This document shows, one piece after another, positions 592-60,480 of a stretch of 64,000 nucleotides of DNA; the first letter of the stretch is position 1; the number at the start of each line of letters is the position of its first letter. A program made the position numbers and the translations under genes. The notes under the pieces were generated by a model that made no database searches, had not been told where the DNA came from, and worked only from the letters and a program-made list of their open reading frames with translations. Origin of the DNA: an uncultured Actinomycetes bacterium (lineage in GTDB: Bacteria; Actinomycetota; Acidimicrobiia; Acidimicrobiales; JACDEA01); NCBI GenBank assembly GCA_963742585.1, contig CAVUMI010000005.1, forward strand, positions 52,908 through 116,907, written 5' to 3'.

Positions 592-1326
592 GTGAACGTC
601 GAAGGCGCAACCGCGCTCGTCACCGGAGCCAACCGCGGGCTCGGCGCGGCGATCGCGCAGGCGCTTGTCGACTCCGGCGCCAAGGTCTACGGCGCCGCTC
701 GCGACAACACGACTATCACCAACCAGGACGTCATTCCCGTTCTGCTCGACGTGAACAACGCCGACGACATCGCGAACGCGGCGCGCGTCTGCGGCGACGT
801 CTCCATCGTCGTCAACAACGCGGGCATCGGCCGCAGCTCTACATCGCTCTCGCCGGACGCCGCCGACGCGGCCCGCGCCGAGATGGAGACGAACTACTTC
901 GGGCCCCTGCGTGTGGCCCGAGCGTTCGCGCCGATCCTGCGCGTCAATGGCGGCGGCGCGCTGGTCAACATCCTGTCGGTGCTCTCCTTCGTCTCCATGC
1001 CACAAGCAGCGACCTACAGCGCGTCGAAGGCCGCCGCGTGGTCGCTCACCAACTCGCTGCGCATGGAGCTCCGCCGCCAAGGGACCCTCGTGGTGGCGGT
1101 GCACGCCGGCTTCATCGACACCGACATGGCCGCCGGGATCGACGCGGAGAAGATCAGCCCCCAGTCGGTCGCCACCCAAATCGTCACCGCCATCGAGGCC
1201 GACACCGAGGAGGTGCTGGCCGACCCGACGAGCCAGATGGTGAAGGCGGCGCTGGCCGAAGACCTCACGCTGCTGTACCCGACGCTGCAGGTGCAGTGGG
1301 ACGCAGTGGCGGTCACCGCGCAATGA
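592..1326 (+). CDS. Short-chain dehydrogenase/reductase (classical SDR)
   Basis: Contains TGANRGLG (TGxxxGxG), NNAG and the YSASK (YxxxK) catalytic motif. 244 aa, GTG start. Confidence 0.9.
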   Translation: MNVEGATALVTGANRGLGAAIAQALVDSGAKVYGAARDNTTITNQDVIPVLLDVNNADDIANAARVCGDVSIVVNNAGIGRSSTSLSPDAADAARAEMETNYFGPLRVARAFAPILRVNGGGALVNILSVLSFVSMPQAATYSASKAAAWSLTNSLRMELRRQGTLVVAVHAGFIDTDMAAGIDAEKISPQSVATQIVTAIEADTEEVLADPTSQMVKAALAEDLTLLYPTLQVQWDAVAVTAQ

Positions 1327-3524
1327 AGCGGCTCGAACGCTCGGAGATTCCGTGGCCGGTCTTCGCGGTGACCGTCGCTGCCGCGTTCATGGTCGCTCTC
1401 GACCTGTCGATCGTGAACGTGGCGTTCCCGTCGATCCGCCAGTCGTTCCCTGAGGTCTCGACGGCCACGCTGTCGTGGGTCCTCGCCGCCTACAGCGTCG
1501 TGTTCGGCGCGCTGCTTCTCGGAGCAGGCAGGATCGCGGACCGCTCCGGACGCCGACGCATCTTCCTGCTCGGCCTGCTGATCTTCACGGCCGGCTCGCT
1601 GCTGTGTGGCATGGCACCCTCGGCGTGGTTGCTGATCGCCGGACGAGTCGTACAGGCCATCGGTGCGGCCTTGCTGATGCCCGCGTCGCTCGCTCTGCTG
1701 CTGTCCGCGACCGCACCAGCAGCAAGGGCCCAGGCGGTGGCGATGTGGGGCGGCGTGTCCGCGCTTGCCGTCGCCACGGGGCCGTCGCTCGGCTCGGTCC
1801 TCATCGACGCCGGCGGGTGGCGGTGGGCGTTCTTCGTCAACCTGCCCGTCGCGCTCGTCGCCGGTGTCGCCGCCAGGAGGGTGGTGCCCGAATCGGTCGT
1901 CGGCGGGCCCGTACCCGACCTCGTCGGTGTCGCTCTCCTCTCGGCTGCGGTCGCGGGCCTCGCCTTAGCGATCACCCAGGGCGGTGATTGGGGGTGGTCG
2001 AGCGGTCGGGTCGTCGGCTCCTTCGCGGCCGCTGCGGTCCTGACCCCGATTGCGATCCGCCGGTCCACCCGCCACGAAGCGCCCGCCATCGACCTCGACG
2101 TGTTCCGGTCCCGCACCGTTGTGCTCGCCAACGCCGCCACGTTCCTCTACGCGGTTGGCTTCTTCGGGATGCTGCTGGCCAACGTCCTGTTCCTGACCTC
2201 GGTGTGGGGCTACTCGACGTTGGAGGCGGGGCTGGCGATCACGCCCGGCCCACTCCTGGTCGCCGCGCTCAGCGGCCCGAGCGGACGGCTCGCGGCACGC
2301 GTCGGGTACGGCCCGGTGCTCGTCGCCGGCGGTCTCACCTTCGCGAGCGGGCTGCTCTTCTATGTCGCGATCGTCAATGCCGACGCCAGCTACCTCACGC
2401 ATTGGCTGCCGGGGGCGCTCCTCGTTGGCGTCGGCGTCGCGCTCTCCTTCCCGGTCCTCAGCGCCGCCGCGGTCGCCGGCCTGCCCCAGGAGCGCTTCGG
2501 CACCGGCGGCGCCATCAACCAGACCGCCCGCCAGATCGGGGCCGTGCTCGGTGTCGCCTTGCTCATCGCCATCGTGGGCACCCCCGCCTCGGTCGACCAG
2601 GCCATGCATCGCTTCCGCATCGCATGGCTGGTCGGCGCGGGCGCCGCCCTCGGCTCGGCCGCCATCTCGTCGTTCCACCGCCGACCGGCGGCGACCACGG
2701 TCACCGCTCCGGTCGCGCTCGGTGCCGGCCGACGCGGCATGAGTTTCGCCGACGACACCGCCGTGACGCGGGTCGGCCCCGGCCGCTTCAGCGCCGACCT
2801 GCACGAGCGGTGGTCCTCGCTCGTCGGTATCCACGGCGGCTACACCGCCGCCATCGTCGTCAACGCGATGACCGCGGCGGTCGACGATCCCTCGCGGACG
2901 CTTCGCAGCTTCGCCACCCAGTTCGCCTCCATCCCTCGCACGGGGCCGGTGGACATCGAGGTGACCGTCGAACGCACCGGCAAGTCGATGACCACCACCA
3001 GCGCCCGCTTGCTTCAGGAGGGGCGGGTGCTGCAGGTCGCCCACGCCGCGAGCTCGACGATTCGGCCTGGCCTCGCCTACGACGAGCTCGTCCGTCCGCG
3101 CGACCCTGAGCCGGGCGACACGCCACGGTTCGCGTCTTCCGGCGGCGTCGGGCACTTCCAGAACGCAGACGTGCGGTTCGACCCGGAGGTCGTCCTCTTC
3201 GCCGGCGCGCAGGAGGCGTTCGTCGCCGCGTGGCTGCGGCCACTCGAGGACGAACCCATCAGCGCCACCTGGCTGGTCGCGATGTGCGACCTGCTCCCGC
3301 CGGCCGTATTCAGCCGCACGACCGAGCCGGTCGCGGCGGCGACGATCGAGTACGCCGTCCACCTGGCCACCGGTGACCCCTCCCTCGCACCCGGCGAGTA
3401 CGTCTACCTCTCGTGCCGCTCACCCCTGTCGAGCGAGGGTTTCGCCTTCGAGGACGCCACCATGTGGGCGCCGGACGGTCGCGTCCTCGCGGTCGCCCGT
3501 CAGACCCGCCTCGCGGGCGCCTGA
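1323..3524 (+). CDS. MFS transporter (DHA2/EmrB-like, multi-TMS) read in-frame into a C-terminal acyl-CoA thioesterase II-like (double hotdog-like) domain
   Basis: ATG at 1323 overlaps the SDR stop (ATGA). The sequence MKRLERSEIPWPVFAVTVAAAFMVALDLSIVNVAFPSI... is followed by many hydrophobic segments up to about 2700. From ATG 2739 (MSFADDTAVTRVGPGRFSADLHERWSSLVGIHGGYTAA...) it resembles TesB-like thioesterases. No stop codon lies between the two parts. Confidence 0.7.
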   Translation: MKRLERSEIPWPVFAVTVAAAFMVALDLSIVNVAFPSIRQSFPEVSTATLSWVLAAYSVVFGALLLGAGRIADRSGRRRIFLLGLLIFTAGSLLCGMAPSAWLLIAGRVVQAIGAALLMPASLALLLSATAPAARAQAVAMWGGVSALAVATGPSLGSVLIDAGGWRWAFFVNLPVALVAGVAARRVVPESVVGGPVPDLVGVALLSAAVAGLALAITQGGDWGWSSGRVVGSFAAAAVLTPIAIRRSTRHEAPAIDLDVFRSRTVVLANAATFLYAVGFFGMLLANVLFLTSVWGYSTLEAGLAITPGPLLVAALSGPSGRLAARVGYGPVLVAGGLTFASGLLFYVAIVNADASYLTHWLPGALLVGVGVALSFPVLSAAAVAGLPQERFGTGGAINQTARQIGAVLGVALLIAIVGTPASVDQAMHRFRIAWLVGAGAALGSAAISSFHRRPAATTVTAPVALGAGRRGMSFADDTAVTRVGPGRFSADLHERWSSLVGIHGGYTAAIVVNAMTAAVDDPSRTLRSFATQFASIPRTGPVDIEVTVERTGKSMTTTSARLLQEGRVLQVAHAASSTIRPGLAYDELVRPRDPEPGDTPRFASSGGVGHFQNADVRFDPEVVLFAGAQEAFVAAWLRPLEDEPISATWLVAMCDLLPPAVFSRTTEPVAAATIEYAVHLATGDPSLAPGEYVYLSCRSPLSSEGFAFEDATMWAPDGRVLAVARQTRLAGA

Positions 3525-4401: not shown

Positions 4402-4867
4402 CTAACCACGCTCGTGATCGGCGCCGACGTCATCGCCCCTTCGCTTGTACGCGACACGAGCGACGAGCCACCATCCCGCCGCGATGACCGCGACTATTCC
4501 GAGGTAGGCGACGAGACCGGCCGCGTAGTTGCGCGGAAGCAGGGAGGGATGCCCGGGCTGGCGGCCGTAGCCGCGCACGAATGGCCACGCGATTGCGGTC
4601 GAGGACCGCGCCGGTTGCGATAGCCCACAGCAGCGGCCCCCGGCCCGGCCCGCGCGCGACCCTGCCGACGATCACCGCGCCGGCCAGGCTGACCGGCACC
4701 CACAAGCCGTCGTGGAGGACTAGGCCGGCGGCGAGCCATCGGGCGAGGGAGGCGGGATGGGTGAACACGTCGTCGTCGAGCGCGCCCGCGAGACCGAATC
4801 CGATCACGGCCCACCCGATCACGAGCGCGATCCAGAACGTGGGGCGCCCGCCGAGCCGCAGCCTCAC
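4402..4867 (-). pseudogene. Small integral membrane protein, last gene of the molybdoenzyme operon, with an apparent frameshift near 4590
   Basis: GTG at 4867 overlaps the upstream stop (GTGA). VRLRLGGRPTFWIALVIGWAVIGFGLAGAL...PLLWAIATGAV then degenerates. A plausible continuation (AWPFVRGYGRQPGHPSLLPRNYAAGLVAYLGIVAVIAAGWWLVARVAYKRRGDD) lies in another frame and ends at 4402. Confidence 0.45.
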
Positions 4868-5991
4868 CGCACCTCCAACTCGGTGACCCACTTCGTCTGC
4901 ATCACGCCGGGTCGGTTGGGGCCGATGAGGCGACACGGGTAGCCGTGGTCGATGTGCAGCGGCTCGCCCTGCAGCTCGATGGCGAGCAGCGTGTCGCGAT
5001 CGTGGGCGTGCATGGCGTTCAGCTCGGATGACCCGTATAGACCCCGTTGCTGGAGCGATCGCACTGTCACGACCGCGTCGGCTCGCGCGCCGGCCATGGA
5101 CAGGAGGTCACGCACGCGTACGCCGCGCCAGTGGGCCGACTGGCTCCACCCCTCGACGCAGGCGATGGGCAGCTCCGCGCCGTGTTGCGGGAGGGCACGC
5201 AGATCGTCGAGCGACAGCGACAGCTCGCGCCGGACCGCGCCAACGACCCGCAGGCGATACGCGGGGTCGCGCGCCGCGTCGGTCACGCCCGCACGGCGCG
5301 CCGTCTTGTTGACGGGCAGGCCCTGTGGGCCGACGCCGGGTCGTCGCTGGGCCAGCGCGCTGATCGGACCGAGCGCTGCGACCGTTCCCCCTGCCGTCGC
5401 CGCGAATACCAGGCCCATCGCGCCGGCCACGCCGCCAAGGAACCTCCGCCGCTCCAACGTCGACGCCTGGACCGGTTCGGTGGCGGGCGTCCGGCCCAGC
5501 GATTCGCGCACGATCGCGGCCTTGGCCCCGATGTGCACGACGAGCGCGCCGATCGTGATCCACGCCACCCAGTAGTGCGCGGCGGGAAAGAAGAACGGCC
5601 ACGGGTACCACTGGGCCAGGTTGAAGAGTCCCGAGAAGAGCATGAACAGACCGCCAGCGACGAGCGGCACGAGCGAGAGCCGCTCCAGGACGTGGGCCAC
5701 GCTCTCGAACGGCGGCCACACCCACAGATGCGGATACACCACCCACAGCTTGGCCAGCAGCAGCGGGATCGACACCACCCCCGTCGTCACGTGCACGCCC
5801 TGGGTGATGCGATAGAGCCCAGCCGGCCGTGACGGCCACTCGAACCACCCCGGTGGGTGCTGGATCAGGTGTGACAGCAGACCGGTGGCGAAGCACGTCG
5901 CGAAGGTGACGCCCAGCGCAATGCCGAGGATCGCTGCGGTGCGGCTCTCGTGGAGCGGGCTGCGGAACCGGGCGTGGATGCGCGCGGTCAC
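4864..5991 (-). CDS. Membrane-anchored molybdopterin-dependent oxidoreductase (sulfite-oxidase/YedY-like family)
   Basis: The N-terminal half has several TM helices. The C-terminal half has the molybdopterin-binding module with CVEGWS, a Tat-like RRRFLGG linker, and ...HGYPCRLIGPNRPGVMQTKWV. The GTG start overlaps the DUF2064 stop. Confidence 0.85.
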   Translation of the reverse strand: MTARIHARFRSPLHESRTAAILGIALGVTFATCFATGLLSHLIQHPPGWFEWPSRPAGLYRITQGVHVTTGVVSIPLLLAKLWVVYPHLWVWPPFESVAHVLERLSLVPLVAGGLFMLFSGLFNLAQWYPWPFFFPAAHYWVAWITIGALVVHIGAKAAIVRESLGRTPATEPVQASTLERRRFLGGVAGAMGLVFAATAGGTVAALGPISALAQRRPGVGPQGLPVNKTARRAGVTDAARDPAYRLRVVGAVRRELSLSLDDLRALPQHGAELPIACVEGWSQSAHWRGVRVRDLLSMAGARADAVVTVRSLQQRGLYGSSELNAMHAHDRDTLLAIELQGEPLHIDHGYPCRLIGPNRPGVMQTKWVTELEVR

Positions 5992-9475: not shown

Positions 9476-10030
9476 TCACCTGCGGGCGAGCTGCAGGACT
9501 TCTTGCGGGTTGAAGCTGCCGAACCACCGCTTGATCTCCAGGCCGCTTTCGTCGAACAGCACCGCGGCAGGCTGTCCGCGGATACCCAACGCCCGCCACG
9601 AGTGACCGCTGCCGTCCCACAGCAGACTGAACGTCACGCCGCGACTGGTGCGGAACTCCTTGGCTTTGTCGAACGTGTCCTGGGTCCCGAGACCGATCAC
9701 GGTCAGAGTGTCTTGATGGGCTCGAGCGAACTGCTCGACGCCGGGCGCCTCCCGGCGGCAATGCGGTCAGTGTGGTGCCCACATCCACACCAGGAGCGGC
9801 GTGGACGCGGGCACGAAAGACCGCAGCGCGACCTTCCGACCCGTCGCGACGTCGAGCACCTCGACGGCGGGTAGGTCCGGCTCGACCGCTGGTTGCGCGG
9901 AGGCCGCGGTCGCATCGGGTGTCATGACGGGCGCGGAGAGCGTCGTCGGCACCGCCGTGCGAGTGCCGCTGCTCTGTCCGCAGCCGGCGAGGGCAGCAAA
10001 CGCCAAGAGCCCCGCCAGGATCCGTCTCAC
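9476..10030 (-). CDS. TlpA/ResA/DsbA-like thioredoxin-fold lipoprotein with an in-frame TGA at the first active-site Cys (candidate selenoprotein, or pseudogene)
   Basis: ORFs 9767..10030 and 9476..9700 are in the same frame, separated only by TGA (9769..9767). The read-through is ...PLLVWMWAPH-[TGA]-PHCRREAPGVEQFARAHQDTLTVIGLGTQDTF... The N-terminus MRRILAGLLAFAALAGCG carries a lipobox. Confidence 0.6.
9739..9757 (-). other. SECIS-like hairpin, 8 nt downstream of the in-frame UGA
   Basis: The mRNA reads UGA-CCGCAUUG-CGCCGGG-AGGCG-CCCGGCG. This is a perfect 7-bp G/C stem with a 5-nt loop that has G at position 2. Confidence 0.4.
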
Positions 10031-25416: not shown

Positions 25417-26064
25417 TCAGGGCGCCGGCAGCAGCTGGTGGACGAGGGAGCCCGTGAGCCACTGTCGATACTTCTCGGAAGGCCAGTTCCGGTCGACGAC
25501 GAGGAGTCGGTACACCTCCGGTGACATGAGCGCGTGGATCAGATCGACCGCGTCGCGTTGCCGCAGCTCCTTCCGGAGTGACTTGCCGCGATCGAGGGCG
25601 CGGGCGATCTGGCTCTGCCCTTGGGCGCGCTGGTGTTGAACCTCCTTGAGGAGCTCCGCCGCGGCGGGCTCGGAGTCGGCGGCGCCTATGAGCACGCGGT
25701 ACACGTCGGTCGTCCGCTGGTTGATCGCGGTCGTCACGCCCGCGAAACCCTCGAGGAGCTTCACCGGGTCACGCTCGGCGAACAGCGACGCGACATCCGG
25801 GCGCTCTTGCACGGCGAGTGGCTGGTCGTCGCCGGCGATCGACGTGTCGAGGAGCGCCTTGAGGATGCCGGGCTTTGAGGTGAACAACCGGTAGACGGTC
25901 GCGGGAGGAACGTCGGCGAGGTTGCTGATGGCCTCGATCGTCGTTCCCGTGTAGCCACGCTCGAGGAACAGGGTTCGAGCGGCAGCGACAACGGCTCGCC
26001 GGGCCAGTCGCGTGCGGGCTTGGCCTCGGCCTTGGCTCGGAAGTTCGCGCTTGACACTCGGCAC
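25417..26064 (-). CDS. TetR/AcrR-family transcriptional regulator
   Basis: ARRAVVAAARTLFLERGYTGTTIEAISNLADVPPATVYRLFTSKPGIL is the HTH. Confidence 0.85.
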   Translation of the reverse strand: MPSVKRELPSQGRGQARTRLARRAVVAAARTLFLERGYTGTTIEAISNLADVPPATVYRLFTSKPGILKALLDTSIAGDDQPLAVQERPDVASLFAERDPVKLLEGFAGVTTAINQRTTDVYRVLIGAADSEPAAAELLKEVQHQRAQGQSQIARALDRGKSLRKELRQRDAVDLIHALMSPEVYRLLVVDRNWPSEKYRQWLTGSLVHQLLPAP

Positions 26065-31110: not shown

Positions 31111-32550
31111 CTACAGGGGCACCTCACGTTGCTGTAGCAGTCGCGAGGCCTCACGCACACCGGTGATCCACGCCGAGTCGACAGTCGAGGTGCCGCGCTC
31201 GCATGTGTGTTCGCCGGCGAAGAGCACCCGGCCGTGCGGCGTCGCCAACGCGGCCAGGTCGGCAACGTGCTGGGCAGGATCGGTCCCCGGTGCGATGTTG
31301 GCGTAGCAGCCGAGCAGAAACGGGTCGGTCGCCCAGCTCGTCGTGGCCGACGCGATGGGATCGGGAGTGTCGGGCCCGCCGATGGCGCGGATCGTGTCGT
31401 GCAGCGCGGCAACCCGTGCCGCTTCGGGCCGCACCGCGAGCGCACGCGCATGATCGCCGGTTGCCAGGCCGACGACGACGGGCACGCCGTACCAAGTGGA
31501 GAGGTCGAGGATCACCGGCCACTCCGGCCGGGGTGCGTCGACGATCGTGATGTGTGTCGGGTTACCGTCGACCTGCCACACGGGCTGCTCGTATGCGAGG
31601 GCGACCTTCTCGAGCGCGCCGAAGCCGACACGGCGAATCGCGTCGGCGTGCGCAAGGGGTAGCGGCGGGTCGATTTCGATGGCGTCGCCCTTGAGCACGC
31701 CGAGCGGCACGGTCACGATCGCGTGCGTGCCGGTGAAGGTGTCGGTCGACGTGTGGACAGTGATGCGGTCTGGCCCCTGTTCGATCCTGAGCACGGGCTG
31801 CGCAGTATGTATGTCGAGGCCGTCGGCCAGGTGCTCGACCACAGGCCGGTAACCGCCACGCGGCATCACGTCCTCGTGCTCAGCGGCCCCGGAGAAGAAC
31901 AGTGAGGCAAACGTCGCGAAGTCGACCTCGTCGGCGTCCTTGCCTTCGTTCATTGCCAGCAGGGCACCGAGGGTGCCGCGCACGTTTGGATCGGTTGTCG
32001 CGAGCAGTTCGCTCATCGCTTGGTCGAGGTCGACGCCAGACTTGAGATCGCCGATGTTGCCGCCGCTCATGACCAGCCCGGCCATGGCACCGGTGAGGGC
32101 GGCGCGCGCATCGACATCGGGGAACGCGCCGTCGACCCGGTTGAGCACGGACGCGCCGAGCGCGACGCCGGTCGTCGAAGCCGGAAGGCGTTCGATCCCG
32201 AGTGCGTCGACCAGCGGGAGCATCGGTGAGCCGGCGCCGTCGTGGATCCACGAGCCACCCAGGTCGACCGCGGCGCCCGCGAAATCGATCGTGTGCGTGC
32301 GGCCGCCGATGCGGTCACGGGCCTCGACGACGACGACGTCGACGCCGCTGAGCCAGAGCGCACGCGCCGCGACGAGTCCGGCGATCCCCGCACCGACCAC
32401 GACGACGCGTTCGGCCGGCCCGGCGACCGGCGCCGGGAGCTCCCCGGGATTCCCCACGCGAACGATTGGTGATGCGGACGTGTCGGTCACAGTAGGTTCG
32501 TGCCGACGCCAAAGGGGACGGTTTGCGCGCACTGAGCTGGGGTCTGTCAA
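31111..32550 (-). CDS. Flavin-containing amine oxidase (start uncertain)
   Basis: Contains VVVVGAGIAGLVAARAL (GxGxxG), EARDRIGGR, and the C-terminal FAGEHT motif. Confidence 0.8.
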   Translation of the reverse strand: MTDPSSVRANRPLWRRHEPTVTDTSASPIVRVGNPGELPAPVAGPAERVVVVGAGIAGLVAARALWLSGVDVVVVEARDRIGGRTHTIDFAGAAVDLGGSWIHDGAGSPMLPLVDALGIERLPASTTGVALGASVLNRVDGAFPDVDARAALTGAMAGLVMSGGNIGDLKSGVDLDQAMSELLATTDPNVRGTLGALLAMNEGKDADEVDFATFASLFFSGAAEHEDVMPRGGYRPVVEHLADGLDIHTAQPVLRIEQGPDRITVHTSTDTFTGTHAIVTVPLGVLKGDAIEIDPPLPLAHADAIRRVGFGALEKVALAYEQPVWQVDGNPTHITIVDAPRPEWPVILDLSTWYGVPVVVGLATGDHARALAVRPEAARVAALHDTIRAIGGPDTPDPIASATTSWATDPFLLGCYANIAPGTDPAQHVADLAALATPHGRVLFAGEHTCERGTSTVDSAWITGVREASRLLQQREVPL

Positions 32551-39467: not shown

Positions 39468-40171
39468 TTCTCGGTCCGTCTCTGCTCGGCGACCGCCATC
39501 GCGTCGAGCACCGCGTCGCGGCCCTGCGCGATGTGTTCGGCCATAAGCGCTGCGGCGCGGGCCGCGTCCCGGCGGCACATGGCTTCGGCGATGAGGTGGT
39601 GGAACGTGTCGGAGCGCTCGATCTCCGCTGCTCCGAACGTACGAAAGGCCTGGAACACCAGCGGGATGTCGACGGTGCGGGCGAGCATCGTCGCCAGCCG
39701 GCGGTGGCGGGCGGCGTTGATGATGATGTCGTGGAACTCGCGGTTGGCCTCATGGATCAGGCGGACACCTGCGACCGCGTTGACGTCAACGGTGCGCCGG
39801 ATCTCTCGGAACGCGTCCGCGGCGGCAACCAGTTCCCCGAGTTCGGTTTCGGTCGACCGTTCCGTTGCCACTTCGACGGCGTAGGCCTCGAGGCGAATGC
39901 GCAGGCCATAGAGGTCAACCACTTCGGTCGCCGACAGCGAGCGCACCATGGCCCCGCGGTTCCGTTCGCTGACGACCAGTCCTTCGGCCTCGAGCATGTG
40001 CAGCGCCTCGCGTACAGGCGTGCGCGATAAGCCCAGTTCTTCGGCGATGCGCTGCTCGACCAGGCGCTGGCCCGGCGAGTAGCGGTTCTCGACGATCGCG
40101 GCGCGCACCTGTTCGTAGGCGAGCTCGGCGCCAACGGTGTCGGCGGGCGGGCCGCTACTCGCCGTCGTCAC
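39464..40171 (-). CDS. GntR/FadR-family transcriptional regulator (start probably GTG 40171)
   Basis: RLVEQRIAEELGLSRTPVREALHMLEAEGLVV is the wHTH, followed by an FCD-like helical C-terminal domain. Confidence 0.8.
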   Translation of the reverse strand: MTTASSGPPADTVGAELAYEQVRAAIVENRYSPGQRLVEQRIAEELGLSRTPVREALHMLEAEGLVVSERNRGAMVRSLSATEVVDLYGLRIRLEAYAVEVATERSTETELGELVAAADAFREIRRTVDVNAVAGVRLIHEANREFHDIIINAARHRRLATMLARTVDIPLVFQAFRTFGAAEIERSDTFHHLIAEAMCRRDAARAAALMAEHIAQGRDAVLDAMAVAEQRRTEK

Positions 40172-40808
40172 GCCCGCTGATCTGACGACCGATGTTGGCC
40201 GCCTGATAGCCCTCGGGTGCTGCGACCTCGACGATCGGGTCGTCGCGATCATCGAACTCGGTGCGCAATGCGACCGACATCACGGCATGCAGCGCGTAGG
40301 TCATCGTGATGTACGTGAAGTCGAGGATGGCCTGATCGTCGAGGTGCTTCTTCAACACCGCGAACACACCGTCGGCGATCCGTCCGTGGGAGAGGACCAG
40401 TCCGTCGGTGTACGCGAGCAGTCCCCGCTCGAGCTGATCGAACTGGTCCGACACCTGCCAATGCTTCAGCGCCTCGATCTTCTCCTCGGAGAAGCCGAGG
40501 GCGCGACAGCTCTTGCAGTGCTGGGAGAACACGAACTGACTGCCGATGAGCCAGCCGGCCCGTGTCTGGCCCAGCTCGCGCAGCGCCGCTGGAATCTTGC
40601 GCTCGGGGCTGGCGTAGAGCGCGAAGCCGCTGACCGCATGCTCCAGGACGTCGGGGGAGTTGGCCCACACCGTCCACCAGTCGCCTGGGGTGCCGGTGGC
40701 GGTGCCGGGCTCCTTTACCGGGTCACGGTCACCGAAGAGCAGCTTGTACATGCGACGCACGATCTTCGGGTTGTCATCGGATTTGGCGATCTGACCGAGT
40801 CGAGGCAC
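40155..40808 (-). CDS. Carboxymuconolactone decarboxylase (CMD/AhpD-like) family protein
   Basis: ...IGSQFVFSQHCKSCRALGFSEEKIEAL...ILDFTYITMTYALHAV is CMD-like. It is a paralog of the 59884..60480 product. Confidence 0.65.
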   Translation of the reverse strand: MPRLGQIAKSDDNPKIVRRMYKLLFGDRDPVKEPGTATGTPGDWWTVWANSPDVLEHAVSGFALYASPERKIPAALRELGQTRAGWLIGSQFVFSQHCKSCRALGFSEEKIEALKHWQVSDQFDQLERGLLAYTDGLVLSHGRIADGVFAVLKKHLDDQAILDFTYITMTYALHAVMSVALRTEFDDRDDPIVEVAAPEGYQAANIGRQISGRDDGE

Positions 40809-55859: not shown

Positions 55860-57657
55860 GTGCGAACTTTGAACCTGGGCATCCTTGCCCACGTAGACGC
55901 CGGTAAGACCACCCTCACCGAGCGCCTGCTCTACTCTGCCGGGGTCATCGACGAGATCGGTAGCGTCGACAAAGGCAGTACCCAAACCGACTCGTTGCCC
56001 CTCGAACGACAACGGGGCATCACCATCAAGTCGGCCGTCGTTTCGTTCACGATCGGCGACGTCGCGGTCAACCTGATCGACACACCGGGCCACCCCGACT
56101 TCATTGCCGAAGTCGAGCGCGTACTCAACGTGCTCGACGGTGCTGTGCTCGTGGTCTCGGCCGTCGAAGGCGTGCAGTCGCAGACCCGCGTGTTGATGCG
56201 GGCGCTGCGCCGCCTTCGCATTCCGACCCTCATCTTCATCAACAAGATCGACCGCCGCGGGGCCGATGCTGCTGCCGCGCTCGCGGCAATCGAGGGAGAA
56301 GCTGATACCGGACATCGGCAGCGATCACCGAGTGTTTGTCGGGTCGGCGATCACCGGGGCCGGCATCGACGCGCTCACAAAAGGGATCGCCGAGGTGCTG
56401 CCGGCTGGTCGGGGTGATGTCGACGAACCCTTGTCGGGATTGGTCTTCAAGGTCGATCGTGGTGCCAGCGGCGAGAGGGTCGCGTACGTGCGCGTCTTGA
56501 CGGGAAGACTCGCAGTGCGAGACCGCGTGCCCACATCTGGCGGGCGCGAGGCGCGGGCGACGCGCGTCGATGTGTTTGACCAAGGCACGACGGAGCGTCG
56601 AGGCGAGGTCGTGGCCGGCCAGATCGCCAAGGTGTGGGGTCTGGGCGATGTGCGTATCGGTGACGTTCTCGGCCGTTCCGACACGGAGGGAGCGCAGCAC
56701 CGTTTCGCTCCTCCCACGTTGGAGACAGTCGTCGTCCCGCACACAGCGAGGGAGAAGGGTGCGCTCCACGCTGCGCTCGTACAGCTGGCGGAACAGGACC
56801 CGCTGATCAACGTACGGCAGGACGACACGAAGCAGGAGATCTCCGTATCGCTCTACGGCGAGGTCCAGAAGGAGGTGATCCAGGCGACACTGGCGAGCGA
56901 CTTCGGCCTTGATGTCACGTTCCGGGAAACGACGACGGTCTACATCGAGCGTCCGAAGGCCACGGGTGCTGCGCTGGAGCGGCTTCAAGCGGAGACCCAT
57001 CCGTTCTCCGCGACGATCGGTCTTCGGATCGAGCCCGCCACTCCCGACTCCGGCGTCGAGTTCCGACTCGACGTCGACCCGCGCCTGCTCCCGGTTCACA
57101 TCTACAAGACGGCGGAGAAGTTCGCCTCGGCTATGACGCAGTACATCTGCAGTTCGCTCGACGAAGGCCTCTTTGGGTGGCGGGTGACCGACTGTCTCGT
57201 GACGATGACCGACTGTGGCTACTACGCCAGCGACGGGCCGACGAAGCCCACGCTGCCGACGGCGAGAAGCACGGCGACGGACTTCCGTGGCCTTGCACCC
57301 CTCGTGCTGATGTCCGCGCTCGAGCGAGCCGCGACGGTGGTTTGCGAACCGATCTTGCGGGCAAGCATCGAGGTCCCAACCGCAACCGTGGGCGGCGTTC
57401 TTGCCGCGGCGGCACGGCTGGGCGAAGTGGTGGCCGCGCCATCGGTGCGGGGGGATCTCTCGGTGATCGAGGCCTTGTTCTCCGCTGCTCGGGCGCAGGA
57501 TTTCGCCCGCCAGCTGGCGCGCCTCACGGGCGGCGAGGGAGTCGTCGAAACGAACTTTGACGGCTATCGACCCGTCCGCGGCGCGCAACCGAGCCGGCCA
57601 CGGTCGATTCACCACCCGCTCAACCGGACGGAATACCTGCGCCACGTCAGGGGGTAA
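55860..57657 (+). pseudogene. Tet(M)/Tet(O)/OtrA-like ribosomal-protection (EF-G-like) GTPase, frameshifted with a probable internal deletion
   Basis: G1-G4 motifs are present: [19 protein letters not shown]. The frame changes near 56285 (...[10 protein letters not shown] versus ...[28 protein letters not shown]). The segment between G4 and G5 looks about 50 aa shorter than I expect. Domains II-V follow intact. Confidence 0.7.
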
Positions 57658-58726: not shown

Positions 58727-59880
58727 ATGACGACGTATGCCGGGAACCGCCGCTGCGCAGACGCGGACAGTCACCTGATGGAGGAGCCCGGGTGGTTGGC
58801 GAGCTTCGCCGATGCGTCGGTCCGGGATCGGCTGCCCGACTTCTCCGCCGAGGTGGCGGCCGCGGTCAAGGCCGGGATGGCCCGGCGGCCCGACGGCCCG
58901 ATCGACGAGTTGTCGCCCAAGGAGCTGCTCGGCGCGAAGGGCTGGGCGGCGATCGGCGCCCTCGACCCGAGCGAACGGACCAAGGCGCTGGACATTCTCG
59001 GCTTCGAGCAGCAGATCGTGTTCCCGACATTCGCGCCCACGCAGTTCATGTTCTCGAAGGACGACGATCTCTTCTACGGCGGCATCGACGCCTTGAACCG
59101 TGGCATGGCGGAGACGTGCGCCGCGGACGAACGGCTGCTGGCCGTCGGGTTCGTCTCGCTGCGCGACCCCGACCGCGCCATGGTCGCGCTCGAGCGCGCG
59201 CTCGACGTCGGGTGCCGCGCCGTGCTTGTGCCGTCGGCGGCGGACGGCAATCGTTCACCCGCGCACGTCTTGCACGATCCCGTGTGGGCTCGCACGCGGA
59301 GGCTGGCGTTCCCGTCCTGTGTCACATCGGGTTCGGGTCCGGCGGCTTGCGGCCGGCGTGGCACGACAATGGCCGCCCGCTCCCCAAGGACCATCTCGGC
59401 GGGGGAGAGAACCTACGGGCCAAGGACTTCCCTGCGGTACACCACAACGCCGAGAAGTTCTTGACTTGCCTCACGCTCGATGGTGTGTTCGAACGGTTCC
59501 CCGAGCTCCGGTGTGGCGTCATCGAGTTGGGCGCGTCGTGGGTCCCCGGGTTCCTGCGCCAGCTCGATGCCGCCGCTCGCCACATGGGCAAGAACGAACC
59601 GATGATCGGCGAACTGACCATGGCGCCGTCGGACTACATACGCCGTCAGGTGAGATTCACGCCCTTCCCGTTCGACGACGTCGGGTGGCTCATCGAGCAG
59701 GAAGGCGATGAGCTGTTCTTGTTTTCTTCCGACTACCCGCATCCCGAAGGCGGTCGCGACCCGATCAGCCGGTTCGAGGCGTCCCTTGACGCCGCGGGCA
59801 TCGGCGAGGATGAACGCGCCCGCTTCTACGCCGGCAACTTCGACGAGTTCATCGGCCTCGCGTCGAGCTCGGTCGGCTGA
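58727..59880 (+). pseudogene. Amidohydrolase-2 (ACMSD-like metal-dependent hydrolase) with a frameshift near 59297
   Basis: The N-terminal part (ADADSHLME...IVFPTF...) is in the 58685 frame. After HDPVWAR the continuation (AEAGVPVLCHIGFG...FSSDYPHPEG) is in the 58792 frame. Confidence 0.65.
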
Positions 59881-59883
59881 CCG

Positions 59884-60480
59884 ATGCGACTCGACCAACC
59901 GCGCATCGCCCCGATGGCCCCAGAGGATTGGCCCGAGGACGCGATTGCGTTGCTGCACTCCATCCGGGACCTCGTCGGCTACGACATGAACTGGTTCTCG
60001 ACGCTGGCCCAACACCCGAAGCTGTACAGGCGCTTCGTGGTGTTCGGCAACCACGTCCGGTTGAAGTCGTCCCTACGCTCGAGGGATCGCGAGCTGCTCA
60101 TCCTGCGCACCTGCTGGCTCTGCGATTGCAGCTACGACTTCACCCACCACATCACCGTCGGGCGAGCCCTCGATTTCAGCGACGAGTTGATCGAGCGCGT
60201 CAAAGAGGGGCCTGACGCGGACGGGTGGGACGATCACGACGCGGCGCTGCTGCGCGCCGCCGACGAGCTGCACGCGAACACGTTGATCTCCAACACGACC
60301 TGGTCCACGCTCGCCCAGCGGTATTCGACCGAACAGCTCATGGACGTCGTGTTCTGCGTTGGCCAGTACGTATCGGTCTCCATGGCGGTGAAGTCCTTCG
60401 GCGTTCAGCTTGAGCCCTGGGCCCACGACCACCAAGTGGCCCGCTCCCTTCCGCCCCGACCGAAAGGCACCCGAGCATGA
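59884..60480 (+). CDS. Carboxymuconolactone decarboxylase (CMD/AhpD-like) family protein
   Basis: ...RDRELLILRTCWLCDCSYDFTHHITVGRALDFSDELIERV is the CMD core helix pattern. Confidence 0.65.
   Translation: MRLDQPRIAPMAPEDWPEDAIALLHSIRDLVGYDMNWFSTLAQHPKLYRRFVVFGNHVRLKSSLRSRDRELLILRTCWLCDCSYDFTHHITVGRALDFSDELIERVKEGPDADGWDDHDAALLRAADELHANTLISNTTWSTLAQRYSTEQLMDVVFCVGQYVSVSMAVKSFGVQLEPWAHDHQVARSLPPRPKGTRA

Follow-up and report, generated by a model that had tools for sequence, protein, structure and literature searches.

A conserved in-frame TGA in a DsbE/DsbF-like lipoprotein gene of an uncultured actinobacterium is a probable selenocysteine codon

On the minus strand of a 64,000-nucleotide stretch of DNA from an uncultured actinobacterium (contig CAVUMI010000005.1; the whole stretch is called the window below), the reading frame of a thioredoxin-fold protein at 9476..10030 is interrupted by a single TGA (9769..9767). 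The question that this locus raises is whether the TGA is a nonsense mutation or a codon for selenocysteine (Sec). The analysis indicates that 9476..10030 (-) is very probably an intact gene for an exported thiol-disulfide enzyme with a TGA-encoded Sec. This reading was preferred over a pseudogene because the TGA is conserved in 11 deeply diverged homologs (here called Sec forms, as distinct from Cys forms with a Cys codon at this position) and is accompanied by an RNA structure specific to the TGA forms. The initial annotation of the locus had proposed a UxxC selenoprotein lipoprotein of the TlpA/ResA/DsbE type, and this proposal is supported by the conserved TGA, its conserved flanks, the Cys-form relatives and the TGA-specific RNA structure.

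Two open reading frames (ORFs), 9767..10030 and 9476..9700, were joined into a single frame with one internal TGA. The complete candidate selenoprotein gene has 184 codons plus a stop, with a GTG start at 10030..10028 and the proposed Sec codon at position 88. Its read-through product, ...LLVWMWAPH*PHCRREAPGVEQFARAH..., terminates at a second TGA (9478..9476). The product would consist, in this order, of a signal peptide with a lipobox, a low-complexity linker and a thioredoxin-fold domain that includes W-M-W-A-P-H-[TGA]-P-H-C-R-R-E-A-P. The internal TGA occupies the position of the first Cys of the thioredoxin-fold W-A-P-H-[C]-x-x-C site. With Cys substituted at this position, the protein matched the Pfam families AhpC-TSA (2e-11), Redoxin (1e-9) and Thioredoxin (2e-6), the match spanning residues 54-163. 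The G+C content at third codon positions (GC3) was 0.84 before the TGA and 0.82 after it, the same as in the neighbouring genes.

Homologs were sought in an exhaustive phmmer search of 1.84 billion representatives, with the 96 residues after the TGA as query, and 532 matches were obtained. Among the best 150 of these, 11 were short ORFs beginning 1-3 residues before the second Cys (e.g. MCNREAP..., VCRAEGP..., MQCNRAAP...) and 10 were short ORFs with their start at a V(V/I)GLG motif, some 20 residues beyond the TGA position; Cys forms with an intact CxxC, typically W-A-P-H-C-P-x-C, numbered at least 35. A word-index search with the Cys-substituted full protein gave no match at E <= 1e-3, and a scan of a genome collection gave only one distant match, in a Bordetella metagenome-assembled genome (L001).

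DNA of the Sec-form loci (L002 and L064-L073) was taken from Logan, ENA, JGI and NCBI assemblies and, together with the window, provided 11 distinct sequences. A TGA was found at the homologous codon in 11/11. Every Sec-form locus has a same-frame upstream ORF with a lipoprotein signal, which ends in ...W-[FMI]-[WY]-[AT]-P-[HYF] and is followed by TGA-x-x-TG[CT], the nucleotide after the UGA varying among C, A and G. The C-terminal halves, of 94-100 codons, are open and alignable and end where the Cys forms end. The ten further homologs, which stem from unrelated metagenomes and metagenome-assembled genomes, are 35-55% identical (37-47% to the window protein), and the Sec forms appear as long, deep branches in a crude neighbour-joining tree. 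Genomes of up to 6.4 Mb yielded further N-terminal halves ending in ...WFWAPH or ...WFWTPH and C-terminal halves starting with MCRxEAP; among the proteins P0285-P0300, such N-terminal halves are recorded as separate hypothetical proteins, so that the family is misannotated systematically. In the case of P0288, from Candidatus Poriferisocius sp. (Acidimicrobiales; 3.57-Mb contig), only the C-terminal 96 residues are annotated, as a "TlpA family protein disulfide reductase".

Cys-form controls were collected in a metagenome scan with the Cys-requiring pattern [LV]xW[FA]WAP[HYS]C, which gave 65 matches at 61 loci, corresponding to 55 distinct sequences. These carry TGC or TGT at the aligned codon, and Cys is also present at the aligned position of the full-length proteins P0122, P0126, P0127 and others. 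The initial annotation had asked whether orthologs have Cys or TGA at this position and whether a hairpin is conserved. The answer is TGA in 11 sequences and TGC or TGT in 55, with an RNA structure specific to the TGA forms, as described below. The standard criterion for bacterial selenoproteins that is independent of the selenocysteine insertion sequence (SECIS) is a conserved in-frame UGA with conserved flanks and Cys-form homologs (PMC13188914). All three were found here.

The protein sequence is conserved on both sides of the TGA. The segment W-M-W-A-P-H (9770..9787) is a conserved beta-strand and turn leading into the active site in the alignments of both Sec and Cys forms: among the Sec forms W82 and P86 do not vary and W84 and A85 hardly do, and in the A1 alignment, which contains mostly Cys forms, no variation is seen at W82, A85 and P86. 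The TGA (9767..9769), the proposed codon of Sec88, stands at the site of the nucleophilic first Cys of the CxxC. The putative redox motif U-P-H-C (9758..9769) runs from Sec88 to Cys91, and Cys91 is invariant across all Sec and Cys forms. Farther 3' of the TGA, Q153-P154 (9569..9574) lies at the expected place of the conserved cis-proline loop of the thioredoxin fold and is the putative cis-Pro site. The pair is invariant in the A1 alignment and P154 is nearly invariant among the Sec forms. Its conservation indicates that fold-critical residues are kept in the part after the TGA.

The N-terminal signal peptide (9980..10030) ends in the lipobox L-A-G-C (residues 14-17; 9991..9980). A hydrophobic N-terminal segment and a lipobox with an invariant Cys were observed in 10/10 aligned Sec forms, as read directly from the sequences. 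In these 10 sequences Cys17 is invariant, and the Ala before it and the Gly after it are nearly so. In the mature protein, Cys17 would be the N-terminal residue and would carry the lipid. The initial annotation had described two minus-strand ORFs split by one TGA in a common frame, a TGA at the nucleophilic Cys of a CxxC motif and an N-terminal LAGC lipobox. All three observations were borne out, the first by the read-through of 9476..10030, the second by the TGC or TGT of the homologs and the third by the position of the lipobox at residues 14-17.

The initial annotation had also named relaxed constraint in the downstream half as a sign of decay. The proportions of nonsynonymous and synonymous differences (pN and pS) after the TGA differ neither from the values before it nor from those in the Cys forms, so that no relaxed constraint was detected; however, the ratio of nonsynonymous to synonymous substitution rates (dN/dS) is saturated at the divergence of the Sec forms, and the equality of pN/pS is weak evidence.

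The RNA structure that distinguishes the two groups lies just 3' of the UGA, where two hairpins, H1 and H2, follow each other directly. H2 (9738..9722), UCGAGC-AGUUC-GCUCGA, covers the codons V-E-Q-F-A-R and has a 6-bp stem and a loop starting 34 nt after the UGA; its form in the family is xxGAGC-[A/G]GUU[C/U]-GCUCxx. Five to seven contiguous pairs were found at this place in 11/11 Sec forms vs 1/55 Cys forms, and the hairpin of that lone Cys form is of unrelated sequence and has a loop without G. In the Sec-form alignment 97% of the H2 cells are paired. Compensatory changes occur at the two outer pairs (GUC..CGA to GUU..CAA; U-A to A-U), with GUU..CAA and AAC..CGU among the arm combinations. 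The minimum free energy (MFE) of H2 was -10.7 kcal/mol in the Sec forms, compared with -5.0 in the Cys forms (p = 2e-7). The 13-mer of the H2 core, GAGCRGTTYGCTC, is present once, at the expected place, in 11/11 Sec-form loci and in 0/62 other loci.

Codon choice within H2 points in the same direction. All 11 Sec forms use the rare GCT for the Ala, whereas GCT accounts for 5/40 Ala codons at this place in the Cys forms. Moreover, Cys forms with the peptide V-E-Q-F-A-R/Q (L020 and L013) use GAA, GCA or GCC codons that break the H2 stem. Since Cys forms with the same peptide break the stem, H2 reflects an RNA-level constraint coupled to the UGA and is not a by-product of the peptide. As a separate observation, L020 (a TGT form; 3814..) is placed among the Sec forms in the neighbour-joining tree while it keeps V-E-Q-F-A-R and the H2-breaking codons; it may represent a fairly recent Sec-to-Cys conversion.

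The published bSECIS criteria are a stem of 4-16 bp, a loop of 3-9 nt with a G in its first two positions, a distance of 16-37 nt from the UGA and an MFE <= -7.5 kcal/mol (PMC13188914). H2 lies within all four limits in 11/11 Sec forms. It resembles the consensus bacterial SECIS of the bSECISearch model (PMC13188914) in its 5-7-bp stem (up to 9 bp if outer loop bases pair), in its 3-5-nt loop with a G followed by a U, in its distance of 34-35 nt from the UGA and in its MFE of -8.8 to -13.3 kcal/mol, which is within the criterion. It differs in the tandem arrangement, a second conserved hairpin (H1) being placed between the UGA and H2. In addition, the published consensus is almost wholly structural, whereas 13 nt of the core and loop of H2 stay the same despite the deep divergence of the proteins.

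H1 (9757..9739) is predicted by folding as a 7-bp stem, CGCCGGG/CCCGGCG, with the loop AGGCG, over the codons R-R-E-A-P-G. In the window its stem begins 9 nt and its loop 16 nt after the UGA. Taken alone it is unexceptional for a G+C content of 70% (z = -0.28 vs shuffles), so that any significance of H1 comes only from the comparison of homologs; the sequence facts of one locus do not suffice to tell a selenoprotein from a pseudogene. A hairpin in the H1 region was predicted in 11/11 Sec forms, with differing stems (CGCCGGG, AUCGGG, ACCGGG, CCGGC, GCCGGGCC, GUCGGAGC and others). H1 was judged by folding each sequence separately because its register moves by 1-2 nt between sequences; in a fixed-register alignment 57% of the cells are paired. 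The mean MFE of the region was -11.6 kcal/mol in the Sec forms vs -7.5 in the 55 Cys forms (p = 0.001). The loop sequence varies (AGGCG, GAA, GAG, GGC, AAGCAC and others). Measured against the bSECIS limits, H1 falls inside all of them except for the distance from UGA to loop, which is 13-17 nt and thus below the 16-nt minimum in 6/11; L071 also falls outside for the loop G and the MFE.

One pair of loci offers a view of variation within H1. L066 (~5021) and L067 (~3822) are near-identical contigs from one JGI sample and were compared over a region that starts 90 nt ahead of the TGA and extends 138 nt beyond it. They differ by one synonymous A/G change (CCA/CCG) at nt 27 from the T of the TGA, in the 3' arm of H1. 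With G, the stem of H1 has 8 bp instead of 5, and the energy changes from -13.4 to -19.6 kcal/mol.

It is rather unlikely, within the selenoprotein reading, that H1 and not H2 is the SECIS bound by SelB. The better folding of the H1 region in Sec than in Cys forms speaks for H1, and its loop, at nt 20-24 from the U of the UGA, presumably coincides with the position of the SECIS loop of E. coli fdhF. Nevertheless, the spacing is too short in the six sequences mentioned, the loop is not conserved and part of the stability derives from the R-E-A-P codons, which are shared with the Cys forms, while the loop and core of H2 are invariant and nearly absent from the Cys forms. H2 is therefore the probable SelB-binding hairpin and H1 probably a conserved accessory or spacer helix. 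The initial annotation had described the 7-bp stem at 9757..9739 as a SECIS-like element. The stem folds as described and a structure is kept in the TGA forms, although it starts 9 and not 8 nt after the UGA. The assignment of the SECIS to H1 agrees with the better folding of this region in Sec forms, but it is the adjacent H2, which that annotation had not noticed, that lies within all bSECIS limits in all 11.

From these observations the following course of events can be proposed. The UGA at 9769..9767 would be decoded by Sec-tRNA(Sec) brought by SelB, which would be recruited through a SECIS within the coding sequence just 3' of the UGA, most likely H2, with the GC-rich H1 as an accessory or spacer helix. 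The secreted product would be lipidated at Cys17 and would act as a lipid-anchored exported oxidoreductase of the actinobacterial DsbE/DsbF (MPT53)/TlpA type, with Sec as the nucleophile in the motif U-P-H-C. Its substrates would be thiols and disulfides of extracytoplasmic proteins, with Sec88 as the attacking and Cys91 as the resolving residue. The actual insertion of Sec, the hairpin that binds SelB, the lipidation, and the redox direction and substrates are all points that we infer.

The selenoprotein reading has to be weighed against decay of the gene. A single base change turns TGC into TGA, gene callers and NCBI show the relatives as split or truncated, and no Sec machinery was found in the surveyed part of the source genome, the 64-kb window. 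The gene could thus be a pseudogene created by a TGC>TGA mutation or, as a variant, a recent relic in a lineage that lost Sec decoding. Such an origin is extremely improbable. Eleven deeply diverged sequences have the same TGA and keep both halves intact, GC3 and pN/pS are unchanged downstream, and the window copy shows no damage to either hairpin or to the invariant 13-mer. Independent identical nonsense mutations, each gaining the same hairpin, are not credible, and on the aligned sequences the conservation of the TGA excludes a one-off nonsense mutation. A split into two products, with an 87-residue lipoprotein and a C-terminal half made separately or in a selenium-dependent manner, as in a selenium-sensing switch, has an equally minute probability. 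Sec insertion is generally inefficient and a truncated by-product is expected, and in some C-terminal halves a start codon follows the UGA in frame at a distance of 1-2 codons. Yet the split would fall inside the active-site motif of one thioredoxin-fold domain (Pfam residues 54-163), neither half of which could fold alone, the window has no start codon from the UGA to V112, and a separately made C-terminal half would have no signal peptide.

Decoding of the UGA as another amino acid, either by reassignment of the code (Trp or Gly) or by near-cognate or programmed read-through with Cys or Trp, is very unlikely. Reassignments of this kind are reported from some Actinomycetota, UGA-to-Trp is described for Eggerthellaceae (PMC13462651), and a stable hairpin 3' of a stop codon can promote read-through. 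In the window, though, TGA ends 45/64 predicted genes, including the gene itself, and code reassignment was rejected on this stop-codon usage. The UGA aligns with a catalytic Cys and not with Trp or Gly, the nucleotide after it is not conserved, and H2 shows the G-U apical-loop pattern and the spacing of a bacterial SECIS.

Several points count against the selenoprotein reading itself. No selA, selB, selD or tRNA-Sec was found within the 64-kb window, nor any tRNA-Sec in the flanks of the other Sec-form loci. The Pfam survey of the window covered 50/66 predicted ORFs and contained no selA-, selB- or selD-like gene; the other ORFs are the two target halves, an epimerase, two ORFs cut by the window ends, and small ORFs (74-164 residues), below the usual sizes of Sel proteins. 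For every member of the family, Sec insertion is deduced from sequence, and the choice of H1 or H2 as the SelB binder is likewise interpretive. The saturated dN/dS is by itself no proof of purifying selection, and the 11 Sec-form sequences are phylogenetically related, so that counts such as 11/11 overstate their independence. No Rfam family matches the SECIS-region element, as would be expected from the poor coverage of bacterial SECIS elements in that database. As to the lineage, Sec decoding is documented in Actinomycetota (PMC1794560) and Sec machinery in Acidimicrobiia (Actinomarina preprint), and one Sec-form C-terminal half, that of Candidatus Poriferisocius, belongs to the Acidimicrobiales. 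A gene neighbouring the window locus has its best matches, at 65-70% identity, in metagenome-assembled genomes of Acidimicrobiia and other Actinomycetota, which agrees with a high-GC actinobacterial source.

The fold family was assigned by comparison with known thiol-disulfide enzymes. The best matches of the family profile among solved structures were two extracytoplasmic TlpA/ResA/CcmG-like oxidoreductases of M. tuberculosis, DsbF (Rv1677; 3ios, 4e-23) and MPT53/DsbE (Rv2878c; 1lu4, 1e-19), followed at lower scores by CcmG, ResA, StoA and TlpA. DsbF and MPT53 share with the window protein the W-F-W-A-P-W-C-P-x-C-x-x-E-A-P context, the length of the domain and the exported location. They differ in having Cys first (CPxC) where U-P-H-C is proposed here, and their genes are without in-frame UGA or SECIS. 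In the predicted protein the W-x-x-C-x-x-C site takes the form W-A-P-H-U-P-H-C, with Sec for the first Cys, and Q153-P154 is conserved. The NCBIfam models for DsbE (TIGR00385), TlpA (NF047696), ResA (NF002854) and StoA (NF041202) gave 25-41 bits vs cut-offs of 123-230 bits. By these comparisons the protein is a member of the TlpA/ResA/DsbE/DsbF superfamily that falls outside every named equivalog and is assigned to a separate subfamily. The initial annotation had called CPHC a DsbA-type motif. This label was dropped, as the fold family is DsbE/DsbF/TlpA-like and the resemblance to DsbA is limited to the P-H dipeptide; no DsbA-family Pfam (DSBA/Thioredoxin_4) or PDB match was obtained for the window protein.

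UxxC thioredoxin-fold selenoproteins are already a known kind, whose genes are routinely broken into two by gene callers and to which the window gene adds a member. The catalogue of PMC13188914 lists a "Prx-like thiol:disulfide oxidoreductase" (PF00578), a "Thiol-disulfide isomerase-like" family (cd02966) and a "Redoxin family protein" (PF08534), all UxxC, as well as "UGC-containing TlpA family" selenoproteins. These families are like the present one in their thioredoxin fold, in having Sec where a CxxC would have its first Cys, in an intragenic bacterial SECIS and in the presence of Cys-form homologs. The individual examples show different degrees of likeness. The Sargasso Prx-like example (FYRGHW-U-PYC) aligns over 38 residues only (E = 8e-5), and the Sargasso thiol-disulfide isomerase-like example (DW-U-TWC) gave no alignment. 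A closer case is the Global Ocean Sampling (GOS) read JCVI_READ_1091141091063 of 2008, in the "Prx-like 2" group (Zhang & Gladyshev, PMC2398784, Dataset S1), a heading deduced from the place of the read in that dataset. It has a lipobox (LLGSAC) and the sequence ...VLWFWAPY-U-TTC-MREA, and hhalign against the Sec-form profile gave a probability of 96.7% over 31 columns. The read ends 9 residues after the Sec, so the comparison covers the part up to and around the active site. On this sequence likeness it very likely belongs to the Sec-form family, while most other "Prx-like 2" sequences (HYFGHFT-U-GTC) are unrelated in sequence context. The initial annotation, which knew of no Sec-containing TlpA-like lipoprotein in such a high-GC actinobacterial setting, had therefore put the novelty too high: UxxC Prx-like and TlpA-like selenoproteins are catalogued, and the GOS read combines a lipobox with W-F-W-A-P-Y-U-T-T-C.

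A narrower claim can be put forward only tentatively. The Sec forms could possibly constitute an uncurated subfamily of DsbE/DsbF-like Sec lipoproteins in aerobic high-GC Actinomycetota (Acidimicrobiia and relatives), with the Sec exposed extracytoplasmically and an unusually rigid tandem SECIS composed of a variable GC hairpin and an invariant GAGC-RGUUY-GCUC element 34 nt from the UGA; in present annotation their genes are systematically split or truncated. If this is true, searches for other actinobacterial selenoproteins could use the invariant 13-mer as a lineage-specific SECIS signature.

Under the selenoprotein reading, the window gene and dozens of relatives, which databases now give as a pair of short ORFs or as a shortened "TlpA family" protein, would each be one selenoprotein. 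It further implies that the source actinobacterium decodes Sec and that a redox function outside its cytoplasm depends on selenium. The very clean difference between Sec and Cys forms (11/11 vs 1/55 for an RNA core of 13 nt, with controls of the same peptide and different codons) would provide a well-defined actinobacterial SECIS for improving bacterial SECIS models. The value of the finding thus lies in corrected annotation and in a cleanly defined actinobacterial SECIS; the understanding of the Sec-decoding mechanism is unchanged.

The window was also scanned for in-frame TGAs preceded and followed by coding signal, which gave, besides 9769..9767, three others (25419, 50980 and 59878). The TGA at 59878..59880 was rejected as a Sec codon; it is a gene boundary, with a CMD gene starting just downstream, and is probably the stop of the preceding same-frame ORF 58792..59880. 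Those at 25419 and 50980 were judged to be gene boundaries from peptide context only. Two CMD/AhpD-like genes are present, at 40158..40751 (-) and 59884..60477 (+), and both are uninterrupted ORFs; CxxU selenoprotein forms of this family exist elsewhere. A second exact copy of the H2-core 13-mer, GAGCAGTTCGCTC, at 32002..32014 (+) was attributed to chance, as it is antisense to an amine oxidase gene (...SELL...) and has no upstream TGA.

Two candidate gene remnants, both resembling parts of a translation apparatus, were met incidentally in the window, which the initial annotation had called rich in pseudogenes. The segment 18825..18899 (+) gave an Rfam tRNA match of 29.2 bits (cut-off 29) and no ARAGORN call, and ends in ...GGGTTCGAATCCCACCCCCGCCA. 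With 75 nt it has the wrong size for tRNA-Sec. It looks like a degenerate tRNA or the 3' half of a tRNA, and is perhaps the attachment-site (att) remnant of an integrated element. The 463-residue ORF at 56266..57654 (+) contains EF-G domains II, III, IV and C without a GTPase domain. It is not SelB; it may be an EF-G/Tet(M)-like paralog that has lost a part, or what is left of a gene.

Some neighbouring genes are of redox type. CcdA is the classical electron-donor partner of TlpA/ResA-type proteins. In L002 a CcdA-like (DsbD_TM) gene (1131..1931) overlaps the start of the Sec form by 4 nt; apart from this locus, no CcdA/DsbD gene was found among the annotated window genes or adjoining the other Sec forms. 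In the window, 3.5 kb separate the selenoprotein gene from an Oxidored_molyb (molybdopterin-oxidoreductase) gene at 4867..5991 (-). L066 (2478..4193) and L067 (1255..2970) have a similar gene immediately upstream of their Sec forms, in divergent orientation, a neighbourhood that may reflect a functional link or coincidence.

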